From contig JAWLHB010000042.1 in NCBI GenBank assembly GCA_041690595.1, forward strand, positions 1 through 64,000: DNA of 64,000 bases, read 5' to 3'. This stretch comes from Lentisphaeria bacterium. GTDB taxonomy: Bacteria; Verrucomicrobiota; Lentisphaeria; JABSQK01; JAWLHB01. The position numbers were made by a program. Shown here piece after piece: positions 6,001-15,000 of this stretch (position 1 is its first letter; every line of letters starts with the position of its first letter).

Positions 6001-9000
6001 GCCCGACGGCAAGGTGGCGTGGCGCTTCCGCGGCGGTCACACCTACCAGAACTTCTGGACGAGCGCCGACGGGCGCTGGATGCTGACCTGCGCCCAGAAG
6101 GAAGAGGAGAATCTGGGCGTGGAAGCCGGGGCGATGCTCTTCGACACGCATCGCCCCGGAGGTGGTTCCGCCAAGCTGGTCTACATGTACCGGGTCGAGG
6201 GCATGGTCTTCTTCCATGCCGATCTGGCGAGGGACGGCAGCGCTGTCGCCATCGTCGAATGCCCGTATGTCGACCCGCGCACCCGGCAACTGACCGGCAG
6301 CTACCAGGTGCACGTGCTACGCTAGAGGTTGTCCTTGACGGTCTGGCCCATTTCCGCGGGCGATTCGACGACGCTGACGCCGTGCGCCTGCATGATCTTC
6401 ATCTTGGCGGCAGCCGACTCATCGGCACCGGAGACGATGGCGCCCGCGTGGCCCATGCGTCGTCCGGGAGGAGCGGTGCGGCCGGCAATGAAAGCAAAAA
6501 CGGGTTTGGTGACATGACTTTGCGCATACTTAGCTGCTTCGATCTCCATGGTGCCGCCGATCTCGCCGATCATGAGGATGGCATCCGTCTCGGGATCCTT
6601 CTCGAAGAGGGCGAGCAGGTCGACCATCGTGGAGCCGATGACGGGGTCGCCGCCGATGCCGATACAGGTCGACTGACCAAGGCCGGCGGCTACCAGTTGA
6701 TGCACCGCTTCGTAGGTGAGCGTGCCGGACTTGGAGATGACGCCGATGCGGCCGCGCCGGGCGATATGACCCGGCATGATGCCGACTTTGGCTTCGCCGG
6801 GGGTCAGCAGGCCGGGACAGTTCGGCCCGACCAGGCGGACGCCTTGGGCTTTGCAGAAGGCCGTCGCCTTCACCATGTCGTTGACTGGGATCCCTTCGGT
6901 GATGCAGACGACAAGCTCGATGCCCGCCTCGGCCGCTTCCATGACAGCGTCCGCCGCAAAGGAGGCTGGCACGAAGATCAGCGAGACATTGGCCCCGGCT
7001 TCACGACGCGCGTCGGAACAGGAGTTGAAGACGGGGACCCTGCCGTCGAGGGCGGTCTGGCCCCCTTTGCCGGGGGTGACGCCGCCGACCACGTTGTGGC
7101 CATAGTCGTGGCACTGCCCCGCATGAAAGGAGCCTTCCTTGCCGGTGATTCCCTGCACAATGATGCGGGACGATTTATCTACCAGAATTGCCATGGTTGC
7201 TCCTTAACCCTGCGCTGCCTGAACGGTTTTGGCGGCGGCGTCGTCAAGACTGCCTGCCGCAATGAGATCCAGGCCGGACTGCTCGAGGATCTGCTTTGCT
7301 TCTTCCGCGTTGGTACCTTCCAGACGGACTATCACCGGGACGGTCAGGCCGAGTTCGCGGGTCGCTTCGATGATGCCGTTGGCGATGCGGTCGCAGCGCA
7401 CGATGCCGCCGAAGACGTTGATCAGGACCGCTTTCACGGACGGGTCGGAGAGGATGATGCGGAAGCCGTTCTTGACGGTTTCGACGCTGGCCCCGCCGCC
7501 GACATCGAGGAAGTTGGCCGGTTCGCCGCCCTTGAGCTTGATGATGTCCATGGTCGCCATGGCCAGGCCCGCGCCGTTCACCATGCAGCCGACGTTGCCG
7601 TCGAGCTTGATGTAGTTGAGGTCGTATTTGTGTGCCTCGACTTCCGTGGGGTTCTCCTCATGGGAGTCCCGCATGGCGGCGATCTCCTTGTGGCGGAAAA
7701 GGGCATTGTCGTCGAAGGTAAACTTGGCGTCGAGGGCGAGGAGCTGCCCTTGTTCGGTAACGACCAGAGGATTGATCTCGGCGAGGGAGGCATCGGTGCC
7801 GACGTAGGCGCGGTAGAGGTTGCCGAGAAGCTTGGCCGCCTGCTTGGCGAGGTCGTCGGTGAAGCCGAGAGCGGCTGCCATGCGGCGCTGTTGAAAGGGC
7901 TGCAGGCCAAAGGCGGGATCGACCCACTCCTTGACGATGGCGGAGGGATTGCGACGCGCCACCTCTTCGATCTCGACACCGCCTTCCGCCGAACCCATGA
8001 TGACATGCCGTTCGCGGGCACGATCGAGGGTGATCGCCAGATAGTATTCGGAGGCAATGTCGATGCCCTGCGTGATAAGGAGCCGGCGGACAAGCTGCCC
8101 TTCGGGACCAGTCTGCGGAGTCACCAGGTTGGAGCCGAGTATCCGGCGGACATGGCCGAGCGCGGTCTCGAGGTTGGGTGCAACCTTGACGCCGCCTCCC
8201 TTTCCACGGCCGCCCGCATGTATCTGGGCTTTGACGACGACGGTTTCGGTGCCGTACTCCCGCTGCACGTGAGTGATCACGCGCTCGGCATCCTCCAATC
8301 TTTCGAGCACACAGCCGCCGGGAACGGGTATGCCGTGCGATTGCAGGACTTCTCGAGCTTGATACTCGTGAACTTTCAAAGGTTACCTCCATGGATGGTG
8401 AAACGAGCTTGCGGTTGCCTGTCTTAGCTCCGCAGTATAGTGCTTACGCTAAATCAATGTAGGGCCATGTCAATGGCTGGCCGCGAAATCGCCTCCGCAA
8501 AGCGGCTGCGCGTGGGCAGCAACGGGCAAAGCGGGGGCAGGTGAATGTCAAAATTTCTGTGATTCCGGTCGACAACCCTGTTGATGTCGGTTATTGTCTA
8601 TCGCTGTCAGCTCAGACGGTTAGTCCAGATCGTTGACTGGATACCAGAATGTGCTCAGCAGGCAGGGAGCAGGTACTGCTCGCGTGCGCGTCATGGTATG
8701 GCGTAAACACTGATGGGACAGGATCTGAAGATGAAAAGTGAAGCTGGTTGCGCCAAGCATGCGCGCCTGTACAAAAGTCGAACCGGGTGGATGCGGCAGG
8801 CTTCGAGTCCTGGCGCCGCTGATGCACCCGCGCTGTCATCGTGACGGTGCGGAGGCGGGGAAGCCGCGGGTTGTCTGGCGGGCGCGCTCCTGCTTGGTGG
8901 CCTGTGTTATGGATATGGGTGTTAAGTCGCCTCTCCTTTCCTGCCGCTACAGCGTACTTTACCCCTACAAGAGTTTACGAAGCAAAAGCCGATGGATAAA

Positions 9001-12000: not shown

Positions 12001-15000
12001 GCGGTCAAGAACATGCTGCAGATGCTGCAGCGGGCCTGCAAGCAGAGCGAGCTGACGGTGGCCGATCTGGATCTGGTCATCCCGCACCAGGCGAATCAGC
12101 GCATCATCGAGGCGGTACAGAAGACAGCCAGCATGGCGCCGGAGCGCGTCTATTCCTGCATTGCCAACTATGGCAACACCTCCTCATCGAGCATTCCGCT
12201 TGCCCTGTCGGAGCTGGCGAAAGGCTCGGAGATGCGCGGTAAGCTCGGGCTGACGGCGTTTGGCGCCGGCTTCGCCTTCGGTGCGGCCCTGCTCGATGCG
12301 TCGGATCTGTAAGGCGGGTCAGGGAGCGGAGATAGCGTCAGCCGCGGCCTTGGCGTCCGCGTAGGCAGCGCTGTCGACATAACCGGGCGGCGGTTCCCAG
12401 ACGGTGCGGAAGCCCACGTGGAAATAGGTTTCGTCCGGTTTGAAGCCGAACCGTTTAGCGCCGGAATAGGTATGCGTGCCGTGGTAGAAGGAGCCTCCCC
12501 GCAAGACCCCGTTCAGGTGGCCGGTGTACGACAGCAGGCGTTCGGCTTCCGGATTGTTCGGGTAGGGCTCGAACCAGTCTGAGGTCCATTCGTAAACATT
12601 GCCGGCCATGTCCAGCGCGCCATAGGGAGATGCTCCGGCCGGCTTGCTTCCCACAGGTTGCATCGATGTCCGCTTGCGGGTTGTCAGATCGACGAAGACG
12701 CCCAGCTCGGTAGTGAGCGGGCTGTTCCCCCAGGGGTAGATACGCCCGTCCGTTCCGCGTGCCGCCTTCTCCCACTGCTTCTCCGTGGGGAGTTGCTTGC
12801 CGCACCAATTGGCGTACTTCTGCGCTTCCGCCCAGAGCACCCGGGTCACCGGGAAACGGTCGTACATCCCCGGCTCCTCTTCCGCCGGCCATTTTGGCGC
12901 CTCCCATGGCGAGACAAAGCCAGTGGCCTCCACAAAGGCCTTCCAGCGCGCCACGGTCACCTCATGCTTGTCGATGAAGTAGCCTTTGGTAAACTCGCGG
13001 CGTCGCGGAAACCATTCCTCGGCAGCGATCGCATGGTAATCCGCATACCCCAGTGACTTTGCATGGGCATCCGCTTCGTCCGCATCCATGCCCATGATGA
13101 ACCAGCCGCTCGGCACGTAGACCATGAGTGCGCCATCCACGGGATGCACAATGGTCGTTCCCGCGGGCGGTTCAGGGGTGGTCGGTTCCTCCCCCCGGAC
13201 GCCCAACGCGGCGCACTGCAGCAGGAGCAGGAGCAGAATGGTCAGCAGGCGAATGGGCATGGTCTACTCCCGGGCGGGTGATGCCGGCTGCCGCAAGGCT
13301 GCCCGAAAGCGCTTCAACTGATTCTCGAAGTGCGACTTGTCGCCCTTGGCCTCCGCAAAGGCTTTCTCTTCCAGCTCGATTGCCCGCTGGATCTCGCCAT
13401 TCAGGAAGAGGGCCTCAGCCAGAGTATCGGCGATATGCGGCTCCGGCAGGAGCGCGTAGGCTTTCTCGGCCATCGGCAGCGCGCGTTCCGGGTCACGGAG
13501 TTCTTCCTTGCGGGCCGTTGCCAAGAGCCAGGCAAAGTTGTTGAGAATGCCGGCATCGTCAGGCTGACGGCTGACCCTGTAGGTGTAGATGACCAGCAAT
13601 TCTTCTTCCTGCTGAAGCATCTCGGCCAGGACCTGGTACTCGGTCCACGCTCTCTCGTCAAGAGGCTGCCTGATCGCGCGGCGGCGAATTTTGCCAAGCT
13701 CTCGTGCACTGGCTTGATCGAGGACGACACCCGGATCACTGCGGCCGCTACGGAATTGCAGCATCATCAGGGCGATCTGATCGCTCTGCCAGTAGCCGAC
13801 AAGCATCATGACAATGCTCCAGACCAGCAGCGCCGCGAAGCCCAGGCGCCAGCGCCAGCTCTTGCTCGTGCCGTTCGCCCGCGGCTTGTCATGGCCGGGC
13901 GGAATGTACGGCGGTTCCATGTCCGACGCGTCTGCCGGTGAATCGGCGGGATGATCGTCTTCGGCCATCTGTCGCACCAACTCGTCCCGTTCCGCCTGGC
14001 TCCAGGTGGCCATGGCCGAAAACTCGTGCATCAGTCGCTGGACGATCTGATGCATCACGTCGGCATCCAGATCCCGGGCTGCATAGCGAACTTCCTGATA
14101 GAGCACAAGATAGGCGGATACCGTATGCTTGGAGGCCACGCGGTGAGCGGCCAGACGCTGCATGAACTGCTGCAGAGTCAGGTGTGGCGGCCGATGTATG
14201 CCCATCTGGTCCAACTGATCCAGAGGGCGACGGAGCAGAGCGGCAAAGTCGGCAGGCTCCTCAAAATCGGCGGAATGCACCTTAACCACCTCAGTAAAGG
14301 GAAGAATTGGCAGGCAGAGTCGAGTTTCCGGTTTGGTTACGCAGCGGCCGGATCGTACCGTACAGCGAATCGACCATGTAAAGCTCCTTCTTGCCGTTGT
14401 AGTCGCGCGAGCATACCACGTGGCGTCCGTCCGCCATCCAGGAGGGCGCTTCCCAATTACCCGCGGCGCGAACGAGCACGTTATACTCGCCCTTGCCGGA
14501 GCCGCTCATGTCGATCATCGCGAGGGTGTACTCCGAACCTTCACGAACCGAGAAGACGATGCGATTGGAGACAGGTGACCAGTCCGGCGAGACAGCTTCG
14601 ACGGATGTCTGGAGGAGCTGCACCGGCCGCCCACCTCCGGCGGGCACCATGTAGAGGGTTGGCCGGCTGCTGTACTCGTCGGTTACGTAGCAGATCCGAC
14701 GACTGTCGGGCGCCCAGGTCGGTGAGGCTTCGACGCCGCTCCCCTTGGTCAGCGCCCGTTGCTTGCCGGTGATCAGGTCCATGACAAACATGTTGACCTC
14801 ACCATCGCGACTCAGGGTCATCGCCACTTCGCGCCCGTTCGGTGCGAAGGCCGCGCCGGAGTTCAGGCCGGGACTGGCGGAGAGGCGCCGGTTGCGCCGC
14901 TGCTCCAGATCGACCATGATGATGCTGGTGCGGGTATTCTCGTAAAGCGTATAGAGAAGGTATCGGTTGGTGGGGCTCCAGTCCGGCTCGACGGAGATGC

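Follow-up and report, generated by a model that had tools for sequence, protein, structure and literature searches.

The window analysed here, a stretch of 64,000 nucleotides from the Lentisphaeria bacterium contig JAWLHB010000042.1, encodes a protein that joins in one chain an E1α-like and an E1β-like part of a 2-oxoacid dehydrogenase, a lipoyl domain (LD) and a complete KAS III/FabH domain. Judged from its sequence, and with a probability of about 0.6, the fusion is proposed to be a self-contained, CoA-free primer synthase for type II fatty acid synthesis, which would make a branched starter from a 2-oxo acid. The chain had been described in an earlier note, whose domain assignment is borne out by the intact ORF and by a repeated Pfam search that reproduced all rows from E1_dh through ACP_syn_III_C. 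No description of an E1αβ-LD-KAS III architecture was found in the literature searched.

Architecture of the fusion protein

The ORF opens with ATG and contains no in-frame stop (Table 1). The E1β-like part comprises pyrimidine-binding and transketolase-C domains. The best PDB matches of the fusion are branched-chain 2-oxoacid dehydrogenase E1 subunits: the E1α-like part was aligned to 1dtw_A (human BCKDH E1), while the E1β-like part matches 1um9_B (3.1e-55) and was also aligned to 1dtw_B. A spacer of nearly fixed length, about 14 residues (positions 655 to 669 of P0001, the fusion protein of the studied genome G000), leads from E1 to the LD, whose β-strands span residues 669-756 in an AF2 model. 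The linker between LD and KAS III lies within the stretch equivalent to P0001 residues 748-786, which is 26-79 residues long across homologues. The AF2 model reaches a mean pLDDT of 88.2; only two segments flanking the LD, 662-666 and 760-781, are of low confidence. Foldseek recovers the E1β fold (TMt 0.92-0.94) and the FabH fold (0.86-0.93). The FabH model NF006829 matches residues 788-1102, scoring 250.8 bits where the cut-off is 249, in agreement with the 28% coverage of the chain given before. No Pfam match to 2-oxoacid_dh (E2 core) or E3_binding is present in the fusion chain at E <= 0.01. The earlier statement that an E2 core is absent is therefore correct for the chain, but not for the genome, which contains three conventional E2 cores, one of them in the window.

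Table 1. Features of the fusion gene and of other genes in the window
Feature	Position	Strand	Details
Whole fusion ORF	8992..12312	+	1106 aa + TAA; monocistronic
E1α-like ThDP-binding part	8992..9951	+	residues 1-320; Pfam E1_dh 9-303 (3.3e-40)
E1β-like part	9967..10956	+	residues 326-655; Pfam Transket_pyr 333-507, Transketolase_C 525-626
Lipoyl domain (LD)	10996..11259	+	residues 669-756; Pfam Biotin_lipoyl 682-743 (2.5e-15)
K710 codon	11119-11121	+	lipoyl motif
Flexible Ala/Ser/Pro-rich linker, LD to KAS III	11260..11343	+	residues 757-784; pLDDT < 50 at 760-781
KAS III/FabH domain	11344..12309	+	residues 785-1106; Pfam ACP_syn_III 894-956, ACP_syn_III_C 1016-1101
C899 codon	11686-11688	+	KAS III triad
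H1032 codon	12085-12087	+	KAS III triad
N1062 codon	12175-12177	+	KAS III triad
sucC/sucD	6322-8379	-	diverge, upstream of fusion gene
FGE-sulfatase gene	12319-13260	-	converges, downstream of fusion gene
Conventional E2-E3-E1αβ operon	52859-58129	-	Pfam; holds E2 core
Dihydrolipoyl dehydrogenase (E3)	55388..56728	-	TIGR01350 494.9 bits, over cut-off; Pfam

Catalytic residues and proposed reaction

Conservation was assessed in a close set, the best 120 of 1532 database matches (1071-1151 aa and with the same six Pfam families, as stated previously; 45-52% identical), and in a diverse set of 38 full-length homologues with 36-46% identity to P0001. The E1α-like part carries the ThDP motif G139-D140-G141...N169 and H239, which aligns with His291-α of human BCKDH E1, and the E1β-like part carries E388 and H458, the latter aligning with human BCKDH His146-β'. 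Both histidines are identified as residues of reductive acylation in the title of PDB entry 1ols. G139, N169, E388, H239 and H458 are each present in 38/38 diverse homologues. The lipoyl motif reads E707-A-D-K710-A, with K710 retained in 120/120 of the close set and in 37/38 of the diverse set. The KAS III triad is similarly conserved (C899 38/38, H1032 37/38, N1062 38/38 in the diverse set), and R1037, which aligns with the ACP-docking R249 of E. coli FabH, is Arg in 34/38 and Lys in 3/38. The catalytic motifs had been called invariant; this extends to all of the best 120 of 1532 matches except at D709, where 113 have D and 7 have E.

These residues suggest the following sequence of reactions. 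The fused E1αβ with ThDP would decarboxylate a 2-oxo acid, most likely the valine precursor 2-oxoisovalerate, and reductively acylate its own lipoyl group, carried by K710. In the second and novel step, the acyl-dihydrolipoyl arm would use the flexible Ala/Ser/Pro linker to swing over to the KAS III domain, where Cys899 would take the acyl group by thioester exchange, a task that elsewhere falls to an E2 core with CoA and, for an ordinary FabH, to acyl-CoA. The acyl-enzyme would subsequently condense with malonyl-ACP, as suggested by the Cys-His-Asn triad and the ACP-docking Arg, and the branched 3-oxoacyl-ACP would pass through normal FAS II to give iso-even fatty acids. Finally, a free dihydrolipoyl dehydrogenase would re-oxidise the arm without a docking domain, in the way it re-oxidises the H protein of glycine cleavage. 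Straight chains would be started from acetyl-CoA by the ordinary stand-alone FabH of the genome. For direct transfer from a lipoyl group to a ketosynthase Cys, no described precedent was found in the literature searched.

Some KAS III-like transferases pass acyl groups on without condensation, and the domain might similarly act only as an E2 stand-in that delivers the lipoyl-bound acyl group to holo-ACP or CoA. Its location in the E2-core position fits such a role, as do E2core-ACP relatives, which show lipoyl-to-ACP transfer as one use of the cassette, and, in the part of the preprint available, the Qnc system (10.1101/265645). Nevertheless, the decarboxylation/condensation His and Asn and the malonyl-ACP docking Arg or Lys are conserved at the frequencies given above and NF006829 is matched end to end, which makes a purely transferring enzyme very unlikely.

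Related architectures and distribution

The nearest non-FabH relatives are single-chain E1αβ-LD-E2core proteins without an E3-binding domain (L046, L047, L048 and P0275), of which P0275 is 45% identical to the fusion over residues 4-795. We know of no paper on proteins of this type. Other C-terminal ends of the E1αβ-LD cassette are a thioesterase (P0282), E2core-ACP (P0313) and E2core-ACP-KS...NRPS (P0304). Furthermore, there are E1β-LD-KAS chains that start at the E1β start (P0278, P0284, P0286, P0295), E1αβ-LD chains on their own (P0287, P0296), LD-KAS proteins (P0197, P0210, P0196, P0159; 419-488 aa) whose contigs measure 17-439 kb and a KAS-only protein with the same 'FGDAATA' signature (P0156). 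Across the split and permuted proteins, E1, LD and KAS III remain associated with one another in a Rosetta-stone pattern. In a quick tree, the 8 canonical FabHs cluster together and are separated from every LD-associated KAS III (SH-aLRT 99).

The fusion family is wide, forming 38 clusters at 50% identity. In the phylum sample, 18/151 genomes are carriers, as are 6/80 further genomes from the class of G000, and in several families every sampled genome has the fusion (f15 5/5, f19 4/4). Its reported occurrence in cultured Kiritimatiella glycovorans and Pontiella was found again among the best 120 of 1532 matches, the latter including P. desulfatans and P. sulfatireligans.

The CoA site and the primer pocket

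In E. coli FabH, the CoA adenine is stacked between Trp32 and Arg151 and bonded by Thr28, according to the available part of PMC4606726. At the R151 position, Arg occurs in 0/120 fusions of the best 120 of 1532 (Q 65, P 46) and in 0/38 diverse members, P0001 having P938, and Thr at the T28 position is likewise found in 0/120 of the close set. T28, W32, R151 and 'GDGAGA' are all found in each of the 7 stand-alone KAS III genes that G000 and five further carrier genomes possess. The counterpart of W32 is W812 by MAFFT and E816 by HMMER; W812, four residues ahead of the E. coli W32 register and near the CoA-adenine site, is invariant in the close subfamily and present in 11/38 of the diverse set. 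R36 and N247, which contact pantetheine, and M207, G209 and F213, which line the tunnel, are retained in 120/120 of the best 120 of 1532. Judged by these residues, the CoA site of the fusion KAS III is only partly gone.

The retained residues and the Trp of the close subfamily fit a CoA-dependent alternative, in which an E2 core in trans (or CoA directly) unloads the arm, KAS III uses acyl-CoA and the fusion merely keeps the enzymes close. At least one E2 core is encoded in 17/18 carrier genomes of the phylum sample, and three are encoded in G000, so an E2 acting in trans is possible. However, conventional E2s bring their own lipoyl domains, the sister architecture fuses an E2 core where FabH stands in the fusion, and two-domain LD-KAS proteins exist. 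The loss of the Arg and Thr, the scarcity of W812 among diverse members, the presence of all three adenine-site residues in the co-resident FabHs, and G065, which alone among the 18 carriers has the fusion but no match to an E2 core, also speak against this route, which is regarded as unlikely. CoA-free priming, as proposed in the earlier note, gains partial support from domain replacement, split forms, conserved residues, R151 loss and fatty acid profiles, while its lipoyl-to-Cys acyl transfer is still deduced and has to be set against those E2 cores.

Phe87 confines E. coli FabH to acetyl, while Thr opens the cavity of M. tuberculosis FabH, as far as the available text of PMC12625853 goes. 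This position is Thr in 119/120 fusions and Ser in P0001 (S871) among the best 120 of 1532, and Phe or Trp in 6/7 stand-alone FabHs of carriers; the diverse set has T in 20 members, S in 6, I in 5 and other residues in the rest. The best NCBIfam models for the E1 part are those of PDH E1α/β (TIGR03181 183-184 bits, NF006667 161 bits), all below cut-offs, so that the sequence alone does not define the substrate. By the same mechanism, the enzyme could act on pyruvate or another 2-oxo acid and make acetyl (or other) primers without CoA, with which these PDH matches, the width of the family and the variation at position 871 would agree. This is rather improbable, as the best-matching known structures are of branched-chain E1s (1um9, 1dtw), Thr/Ser replaces the acetyl-restricting Phe, the carriers already own an ordinary FabH with Phe87 for acetyl-CoA and the named carriers are rich in iso-even acids in the profiles available.

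Fatty acids and other enzymes of carrier genomes

An isobutyryl primer gives rise to iso-even chains. In the available part of PMC5148204, K. glycovorans has i-C14:0 and C18:0 as major acids and no odd-numbered acids, and anteiso-C15:0 was not detected; excerpts on Pontiella species give C18:0, i-C12:0, i-C14:0, i-C18:0 and i-C16:0 (PMC7356697; preprint 10.1101/2023.06.09.544357). Within these excerpts, the named cultured carriers contain no acids other than iso-even and straight even ones, the pattern that isobutyryl and acetyl primers would give. In G023, a second conventional complex with fused E1αβ could be a BCKDH that accounts for the iso-fatty acids. Lpd over cut-off and LipA were each found in 5/5 carriers checked. 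The E3 gene in the window, a member of the conventional operon 43 kb from the fusion, is a candidate for re-oxidation of the lipoyl arm.

An ordinary FabH is also present in 6/6 carriers checked, that of G000 in a plsX-fabH-fabG cluster (L001:757-1773); the fusion is therefore accessory and may yield something other than a membrane fatty acid. It might prime a specialised lipid or polyketide instead, in line with its patchy distribution, the place of P0304 in a PKS/NRPS chain and the extra KR domain of its relative P0246, a hint that some lineages make products of the polyketide type. Such a role is hardly probable, since neither in the window nor at 8 related loci is the gene surrounded by a biosynthetic cluster, whole sampled families carry the fusion and iso-even acids are major in the membranes of the named carriers in the excerpts cited. 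Conserved neighbour genes were likewise not found in the 8 loci.

Comparison with known systems

In Bacillus and Staphylococcus, the branched-chain 2-oxoacid dehydrogenase complex feeds FabH via acyl-CoA, according to the available parts of PMC10026030 and PMC8524195. The fusion shares with this route an α/β ThDP E1 with both catalytic His, a lipoyl-lysine arm and, as proposed, the need for an E3 and a KAS III that would condense a branched primer with malonyl-ACP. It differs in being one chain without E2 core or E3-binding domain, in the proposed absence of free acyl-CoA and in a KAS III that lacks the CoA-adenine-holding Arg (and Thr). The E1αβ-LD-E2core proteins from the same phylum and from metagenomes (L046, L047, L048, P0275, P0298, P0306, P0317) have the same cassette, also without E3-binding domain, and are 33-45% identical to P0001 over stretches that vary with the protein from 1-610 to 1-795, but end in a CoA-dependent 2-oxoacid_dh acyltransferase where the fusion has KAS III.

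QncN/QncL/QncM form the glycolicacyl-ACP loading system of quinocarcin biosynthesis, in which, as far as the available text extends, a ThDP enzyme loads an LD fused to E1β-like domains, so that entry to a carrier-protein line is similarly CoA-free (preprint 10.1101/265645). There, the E1 is transketolase-like and acts on a ketose and an E2-like acyltransferase loads the ACP, whereas in the fusion the ketosynthase is proposed to take the acyl group and condense. Actinobacterial OdhA, a two-in-one E2o-E1o, likewise breaks the three-protein rule, with decarboxylation and succinyl-transfer (E2) in one polypeptide, in the part of PMC10415282 available. The fusion, in contrast, keeps a lipoyl domain and has no E2 core. 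OdhA is not known to have a lipoyl domain of its own. Finally, the fusion KAS III resembles canonical FabH (E. coli b1091 and that of G000) in its fold (TMt about 0.9), the Cys-His-Asn triad, the NF006829 match and an HQANxRI motif with the ACP-docking Arg, but deviates from it in 'FGDAATA' for 'FGDGAGA', the loss of R151 and T28, Thr/Ser for Phe87 and a four-residue insertion after the Trp.

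Architecture of the fusion protein

P0001, the 1106-residue product of gene g04690, is a 2-oxoacid dehydrogenase with a ketosynthase in the place of its E2 core. Along the chain, Pfam assigns E1_dh (residues 9-303), Transket_pyr (333-507), Transketolase_C (525-626), Biotin_lipoyl (682-743; PF00364, 2.5e-15), ACP_syn_III (894-956) and ACP_syn_III_C (1016-1101). Neither the E2 catalytic core 2-oxoacid_dh (PF00198) nor the peripheral subunit/E3-binding domain (PF02817) is matched at a Pfam E-value of 0.01 or lower, and Pfam finds no PP-binding (ACP) domain. Of the NCBIfam models, the FabH model NF006829 covers residues 788-1102 end to end and passes its cut-off narrowly (250.8 bits against 249), while TIGR00747 fails (212 bits against 292.1). 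The closest solved structures are the E1 subunits of the Thermus and human branched-chain 2-oxoacid dehydrogenases and many FabH structures. Stop codons are abundant on the strand opposite the gene.

An AlphaFold2 model of P0001, built with 114 homologues, has a mean pLDDT of 88.2, with low confidence confined to the connectors on either side of the lipoyl domain (residues 662-666 and 760-781). Residues 669-756 are all-beta in this model, and Foldseek aligns it with E1beta structures at a TMt of 0.92-0.94 and with FabH structures at 0.86-0.93. A complex prediction of the lipoyl domain (664-750) with the KAS III dimer (780-1106) gave no answer (score 0.00) and counts neither way.

The description of the database matches in the earlier note proved exact: there are 1532, and the best 120 are 1071-1151 residues long, contain the same six Pfam families and show 45-52% identity. 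Kiritimatiella glycovorans, Pontiella desulfatans and P. sulfatireligans are among the sources of these 120 close homologues.

Genomic setting

The fusion gene stands alone, with sucC/sucD diverging upstream and an FGE-sulfatase gene converging downstream. No related gene lies beside it within the window, and no neighbour is conserved across 8 related loci, PtsP adjoining the gene in only two genomes, both of one genus. A promoter and terminator scan gave nothing exceeding shuffled sequences, and a search of sequencing runs returned DNA rows of small share only, with no RNA run listed. The fusion is followed at 12319-21551 by genes of a polysaccharide-degrader type, encoding an FGE-sulfatase maturase, a PD40 beta-propeller protein, a SASA-type carbohydrate esterase and a DUF6259 protein. 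Two long ORFs of the window, candidate genes at 21667-24933 (+, 1088 aa) and 481-2385 (+, 634 aa), lie in high-G+C DNA and have no Pfam match at E <= 1e-4.

Locations of the fusion gene, of the conventional 2-oxoacid dehydrogenase operon in the same window, and of single-chain relatives ending in an E2 core (L046-L048 come from other families of the phylum)
Feature	Location	Strand	Remarks
Fusion ORF	8992-12312	+	Single frame, 1106 codons, ATG start, TAA stop
Conventional 2-oxoacid dehydrogenase operon, complete	52859-58953	-	DeoR regulator, E2, E3, fused E1alphabeta
DeoR-type regulator	58135-58953	-	Conventional operon
E2 with lipoyl, E3-binding and core domains	56768-58129	-	Conventional operon
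E3	55388-56728	-	Conventional operon
Fused E1alphabeta, 824 aa	52859-55333	-	Conventional operon
Single-chain E1alphabeta-lipoyl-E2core	L046:1097-4144	-	Other family of the phylum
Single-chain E1alphabeta-lipoyl-E2core	L047:386-3517	+	Other family of the phylum
Single-chain E1alphabeta-lipoyl-E2core	L048:1306-4536	+	Other family of the phylum

The host genome (G000, 8.1 Mb) is well provided with conventional parts. It contains an ordinary FabH in a plsX-fabH-fabG cluster, three dihydrolipoyl dehydrogenases above the family cut-off and three E2 cores in genes other than the fusion; NCBIfam typing of the conventional operon in the window resolved no substrate. The statement that no E2 core is present is therefore true of the P0001 chain but not of the cell. 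Elsewhere in the genome, ACP_syn_III_C is matched twice in one open frame of 694 aa (G000:C54:25164-26435, +), suggesting a tandem KAS III-like protein that by position is unrelated to the fusion.

Catalytic equipment of the E1 and lipoyl parts

Conservation was assessed in the 120 close homologues and in a diverse set of 38 clusters (P0001 included) that span the whole chain at 36-46% identity in a representative library clustered at 50% identity. The catalytic motifs, which the earlier note had called invariant, are identical in all 120 close homologues save for D709 of the lipoyl motif, which is Asp in 113 and Glu in 7. The ThDP motif and glutamate (G139, D140, G141, N169 and E388) are thus present in 120/120; in the diverse set G139, N169 and E388 (the cofactor-activating Glu of E1) occur in 38/38 and D140 in 32/38, with Glu in the other 6. 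H239 and H458, each found in 38/38 diverse homologues, align with His291-alpha and His146-beta' of human BCKDH, residues named for reductive acylation in the title of PDB entry 1ols. As for the substrate of E1, the best PDB relatives are BCKDH E1 proteins, yet the best NCBIfam matches are PDH E1 models below their cut-offs, and this typing was decisive neither for the fusion E1 nor for the second, conventional complex of G023, another genome carrying the fusion.

Lipoyl domains are recognized by the Biotin_lipoyl fold with a hairpin-tip lysine in an (E/V)xDKA context. In P0001 the motif reads E707-A-D-K710-A, and K710 is found in 120/120 close and 37/38 diverse homologues. LipA is present in G000 and in 4/4 other carriers checked, and Lpd and LipA were found in all carriers checked; the presence of LipA establishes only the capacity for lipoylation of K710. 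The spacer between E1 and the lipoyl domain is near-constant, with 14 residues in 24/38 diverse homologues, and the stretch between lipoyl domain and KAS III is variable: the interval matching residues 748-786 of P0001, of which 757-784 are rich in Ala, Ser and Pro, ranges from 26 to 79 residues.

The KAS III part and its CoA site

The Cys-His-Asn triad of the ketosynthase (C899, H1032, N1062) is complete in 120/120 close homologues and is retained at 38/38, 37/38 and 38/38, respectively, in the diverse set. R1037 of the HQANxRI motif aligns with R249, the ACP-docking Arg of E. coli FabH, and is Arg in 120/120 close homologues and Arg (34) or Lys (3) in the 38 diverse ones.

In the E. coli FabH, the CoA adenine is described as stacked between Trp32 and Arg151 and bonded to Thr28, with the pantetheine held by Arg36, Asn209 and Asn246 (PMC4606726). 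The position of R151 is never Arg in the fusion family, neither in the close set (Q 65, P 46, A 6, L 2, T 1) nor in the diverse set (0/38). Thr is likewise absent at the T28 position (0/120), where the alignment is weakest, and 'FGDGAGA' has become 'FGDAATA', with G160A in 120/120. The tryptophan requires more care. An ungapped HMMER alignment pairs W32 with E816, from which a loss of Trp32 was first read; MAFFT, by means of a four-residue insertion, pairs it with W812, which is invariant in the close set and precedes the E. coli register by four residues, and the residue is better called displaced than lost. In the diverse set W812 occurs in 11/38 homologues and a Trp at the ungapped position in 2/38. 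As controls, T28, W32, R151 and GDGAGA are retained by 7/7 stand-alone KAS III genes drawn from G000 and five further carrier genomes. Against these intact controls, the CoA-nucleotide site of the fusion KAS III appears to have decayed selectively. The pantetheine and tunnel residues R36, N247, M207, G209 and F213 are kept in the close set, with R36 in only 18/38 of the diverse set; their retention is what would be expected if the lipoyl-lysine arm used the same tunnel.

Exchange of the C-terminal domain and split forms

The main new evidence, as read from the sequences of relatives, is the apparent replacement of the domain at the FabH position. Within the phylum, the E1-lipoyl part has its next-best relatives in single chains (1015-1076 aa) whose E1alphabeta and lipoyl domain are followed by an E2 core, with no E3-binding domain. 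The three of these listed in the table are 'all-in-one minus E3' 2-oxoacid dehydrogenases, a type of which we know of no description. P0275, from the representative library, matches P0001 at 45% identity over residues 4-795, after which comes a terminal E2 core. Among metagenome proteins, the E1alphabeta-lipoyl cassette ends in a thioesterase in P0282 and in E2core-ACP in P0313, and in P0304 E2core-ACP is followed by KS, methyltransferase, condensation and adenylation domains of the PKS/NRPS kind. The metagenome protein P0246 is a KAS III fusion extended by a KR domain to a 1942-aa chain. Because the domains that follow it are exchanged, the E1alphabeta-lipoyl unit behaves as a loading cassette with interchangeable acyl acceptors, KAS III being the acceptor in the fusion family.

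Split and permuted forms exist as well, and every pairwise cut occurs. Chains with E1beta, lipoyl domain and KAS start at the E1beta start (P0278, P0284, P0286, P0295), E1alphabeta with the lipoyl domain stands alone in P0287 and P0296, and lipoyl-KAS proteins of 419-488 aa are encoded on contigs of 17-439 kb (P0197, P0210, P0196, P0159). Many further short matches were left out of this count, as their contigs are short and they could be fragmentary. P0156, a KAS-only protein of 321 aa with the signature of the fusion family, lies on an 832-kb contig and is the product of a gene that was split recently or of one that is broken or wrongly called. A quick, midpoint-rooted tree of KAS III domains, with several long branches, groups the 8 canonical FabHs together (SH-aLRT 99) and puts every lipoyl-associated KAS III domain on the other side, with the split forms scattered among the fusions, P0156 nested within Pontiella-like fusions and P0001 sister (97) to the group with the named Kiritimatiella and Pontiella sequences.

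Distribution and the question of a separate E2

The full-length fusion was found in 18/151 genomes of the phylum, a count that includes G000 and one copy truncated by a contig end, and some families have it in all of their sampled genomes (f15, 5/5; f19, 4/4). The sources named for partial proteins with lipoyl domain and KAS III belong to Planctomycetota, Alphaproteobacteria, Burkholderiales and spirochaetes. Within the class of G000, this first sample gave 0/49 genomes with the fusion, and a second sample, searched with the lipoyl-KAS part as query, gave 4/14 genomes of the same order and 2/66 others of the class, with frames of 1105-1145 aa. The distribution is thus patchy, yet the fusion is not foreign to the lineage. 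A gene transfer into G000 as the only carrier of its class was considered and dropped in view of these second-sample carriers and of the G+C content of the gene (0.62), which equals that of the window.

A separate E2 could unload the lipoyl arm in trans, and a lack of E2 among carriers was considered as a discriminator against such a route. It failed, since only one carrier genome, G065, has no E2 core match, and the other 17/18 have one. G065 (5.9 Mb, 97% complete) has Lpd and LipA, and its lipoylated proteins may consist of just the fusion and the H protein.

Primer pocket and carrier lipids

Isobutyryl is the primer of iso-even fatty acids, and acetyl that of straight even chains. According to the species description, the fatty acids of Pontiella desulfatans and P. 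sulfatireligans are C18:0, i-C12:0, i-C14:0 and i-C18:0, with i-C16:0 also in strain F21 (PMC7356697); similar fatty acids are given for P. agarivorans (preprint 10.1101/2023.06.09.544357), a likeness on lipids alone. Initiation by the fusion from 2-oxoisovalerate and by the ordinary FabH from acetyl-CoA would together match the profile of the carriers exactly. This match of lipids and genes is a correlation across three named carriers, and a conventional 2-oxoacid dehydrogenase complex is present in G023 besides the fusion.

The primer channel is described as blocked by Phe87 in the E. coli FabH, restricting it to acetyl, and as opened by Thr at this position in the M. tuberculosis enzyme (PMC12625853). 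The fusion has Thr here in 119/120 and Ser in P0001, and the co-resident FabHs have Phe (5/7), Trp (1/7) or Gln (1/7). The primer pocket of the fusion KAS III is predicted to be enlarged.

Weighing of the evidence and comparison with known systems

The CoA-free priming put forward in the earlier note is favoured by the comparative evidence, and we give a direct route, in which E1 loads the built-in lipoyl arm and Cys899 would take the acyl group without CoA, a probability of roughly 0.6. Counted for it are a KAS III that takes the place of the E2 core position for position, the Rosetta-stone pattern, the chemistry kept at every step, the decay of the CoA-nucleotide site relative to the controls, the larger primer pocket, the carrier lipids, and Lpd together with LipA. 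Against it stand the E2 cores in nearly all carriers, the Trp retained in the close subfamily, the mixed signals on E1 specificity and the accessory nature of the gene. We are more confident of a broader claim than of the direct route: that the lipoyl arm acts as the obligatory carrier between the E1 and KAS III of the fusion. For a more general reading we see an even chance: that ketosynthases have in the S-acyl-dihydrolipoyl-lysine arm a third type of primer donor, next to acyl-CoA and acyl-ACP, that E1alphabeta-lipoyl is a portable CoA-free loading cassette which in the course of evolution was joined to acceptors of the KAS III, thioesterase, E2core-ACP and PKS/NRPS kinds, and that in Kiritimatiellia and the lineage of G000 it serves as a dedicated 2-oxoisovalerate-to-isobutyryl starter. 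Such a starter would explain the odd profile of iso-even and straight even chains only, with none odd-numbered.

In textbook accounts, the primer for fatty-acid initiation is an acyl-CoA, and 2-oxoacid dehydrogenases pass the acyl group to CoA via the E2 core. If the enzyme works as read, both rules would be removed, with the lipoyl arm feeding a ketosynthase directly and a 2-oxo acid being committed to lipid synthesis in one protein, without mixing into the CoA pool. The unusual iso-even-only fatty acids that set Kiritimatiella and Pontiella apart would then have a molecular explanation, and thousands of database entries, at present named just 'beta-ketoacyl-ACP synthase 3' or '2-oxoisovalerate dehydrogenase E1', would be corrected. 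Hosts engineered to make branched-chain fatty acids could also be given a compact part consisting of a single gene.

A literature search that included papers with both 'lipoyl' and 'FabH', and whose coverage did not extend to subscription journals, returned no description of an E1-lipoyl-KAS III protein, and the two species papers on Kiritimatiella and Pontiella mention neither lipoyl nor FabH. Alike in spirit is the QncN/QncL/QncM system of quinocarcin biosynthesis, described as having E1beta-like domains in fusion with a lipoyl domain, together with an acyltransferase for the loading of an ACP (preprint 10.1101/265645). However, a Qnc-type module has an E2-like acyltransferase after the lipoyl domain as well as a dedicated ACP; P0001 has neither, whereas its relatives P0313 and P0304 have both.
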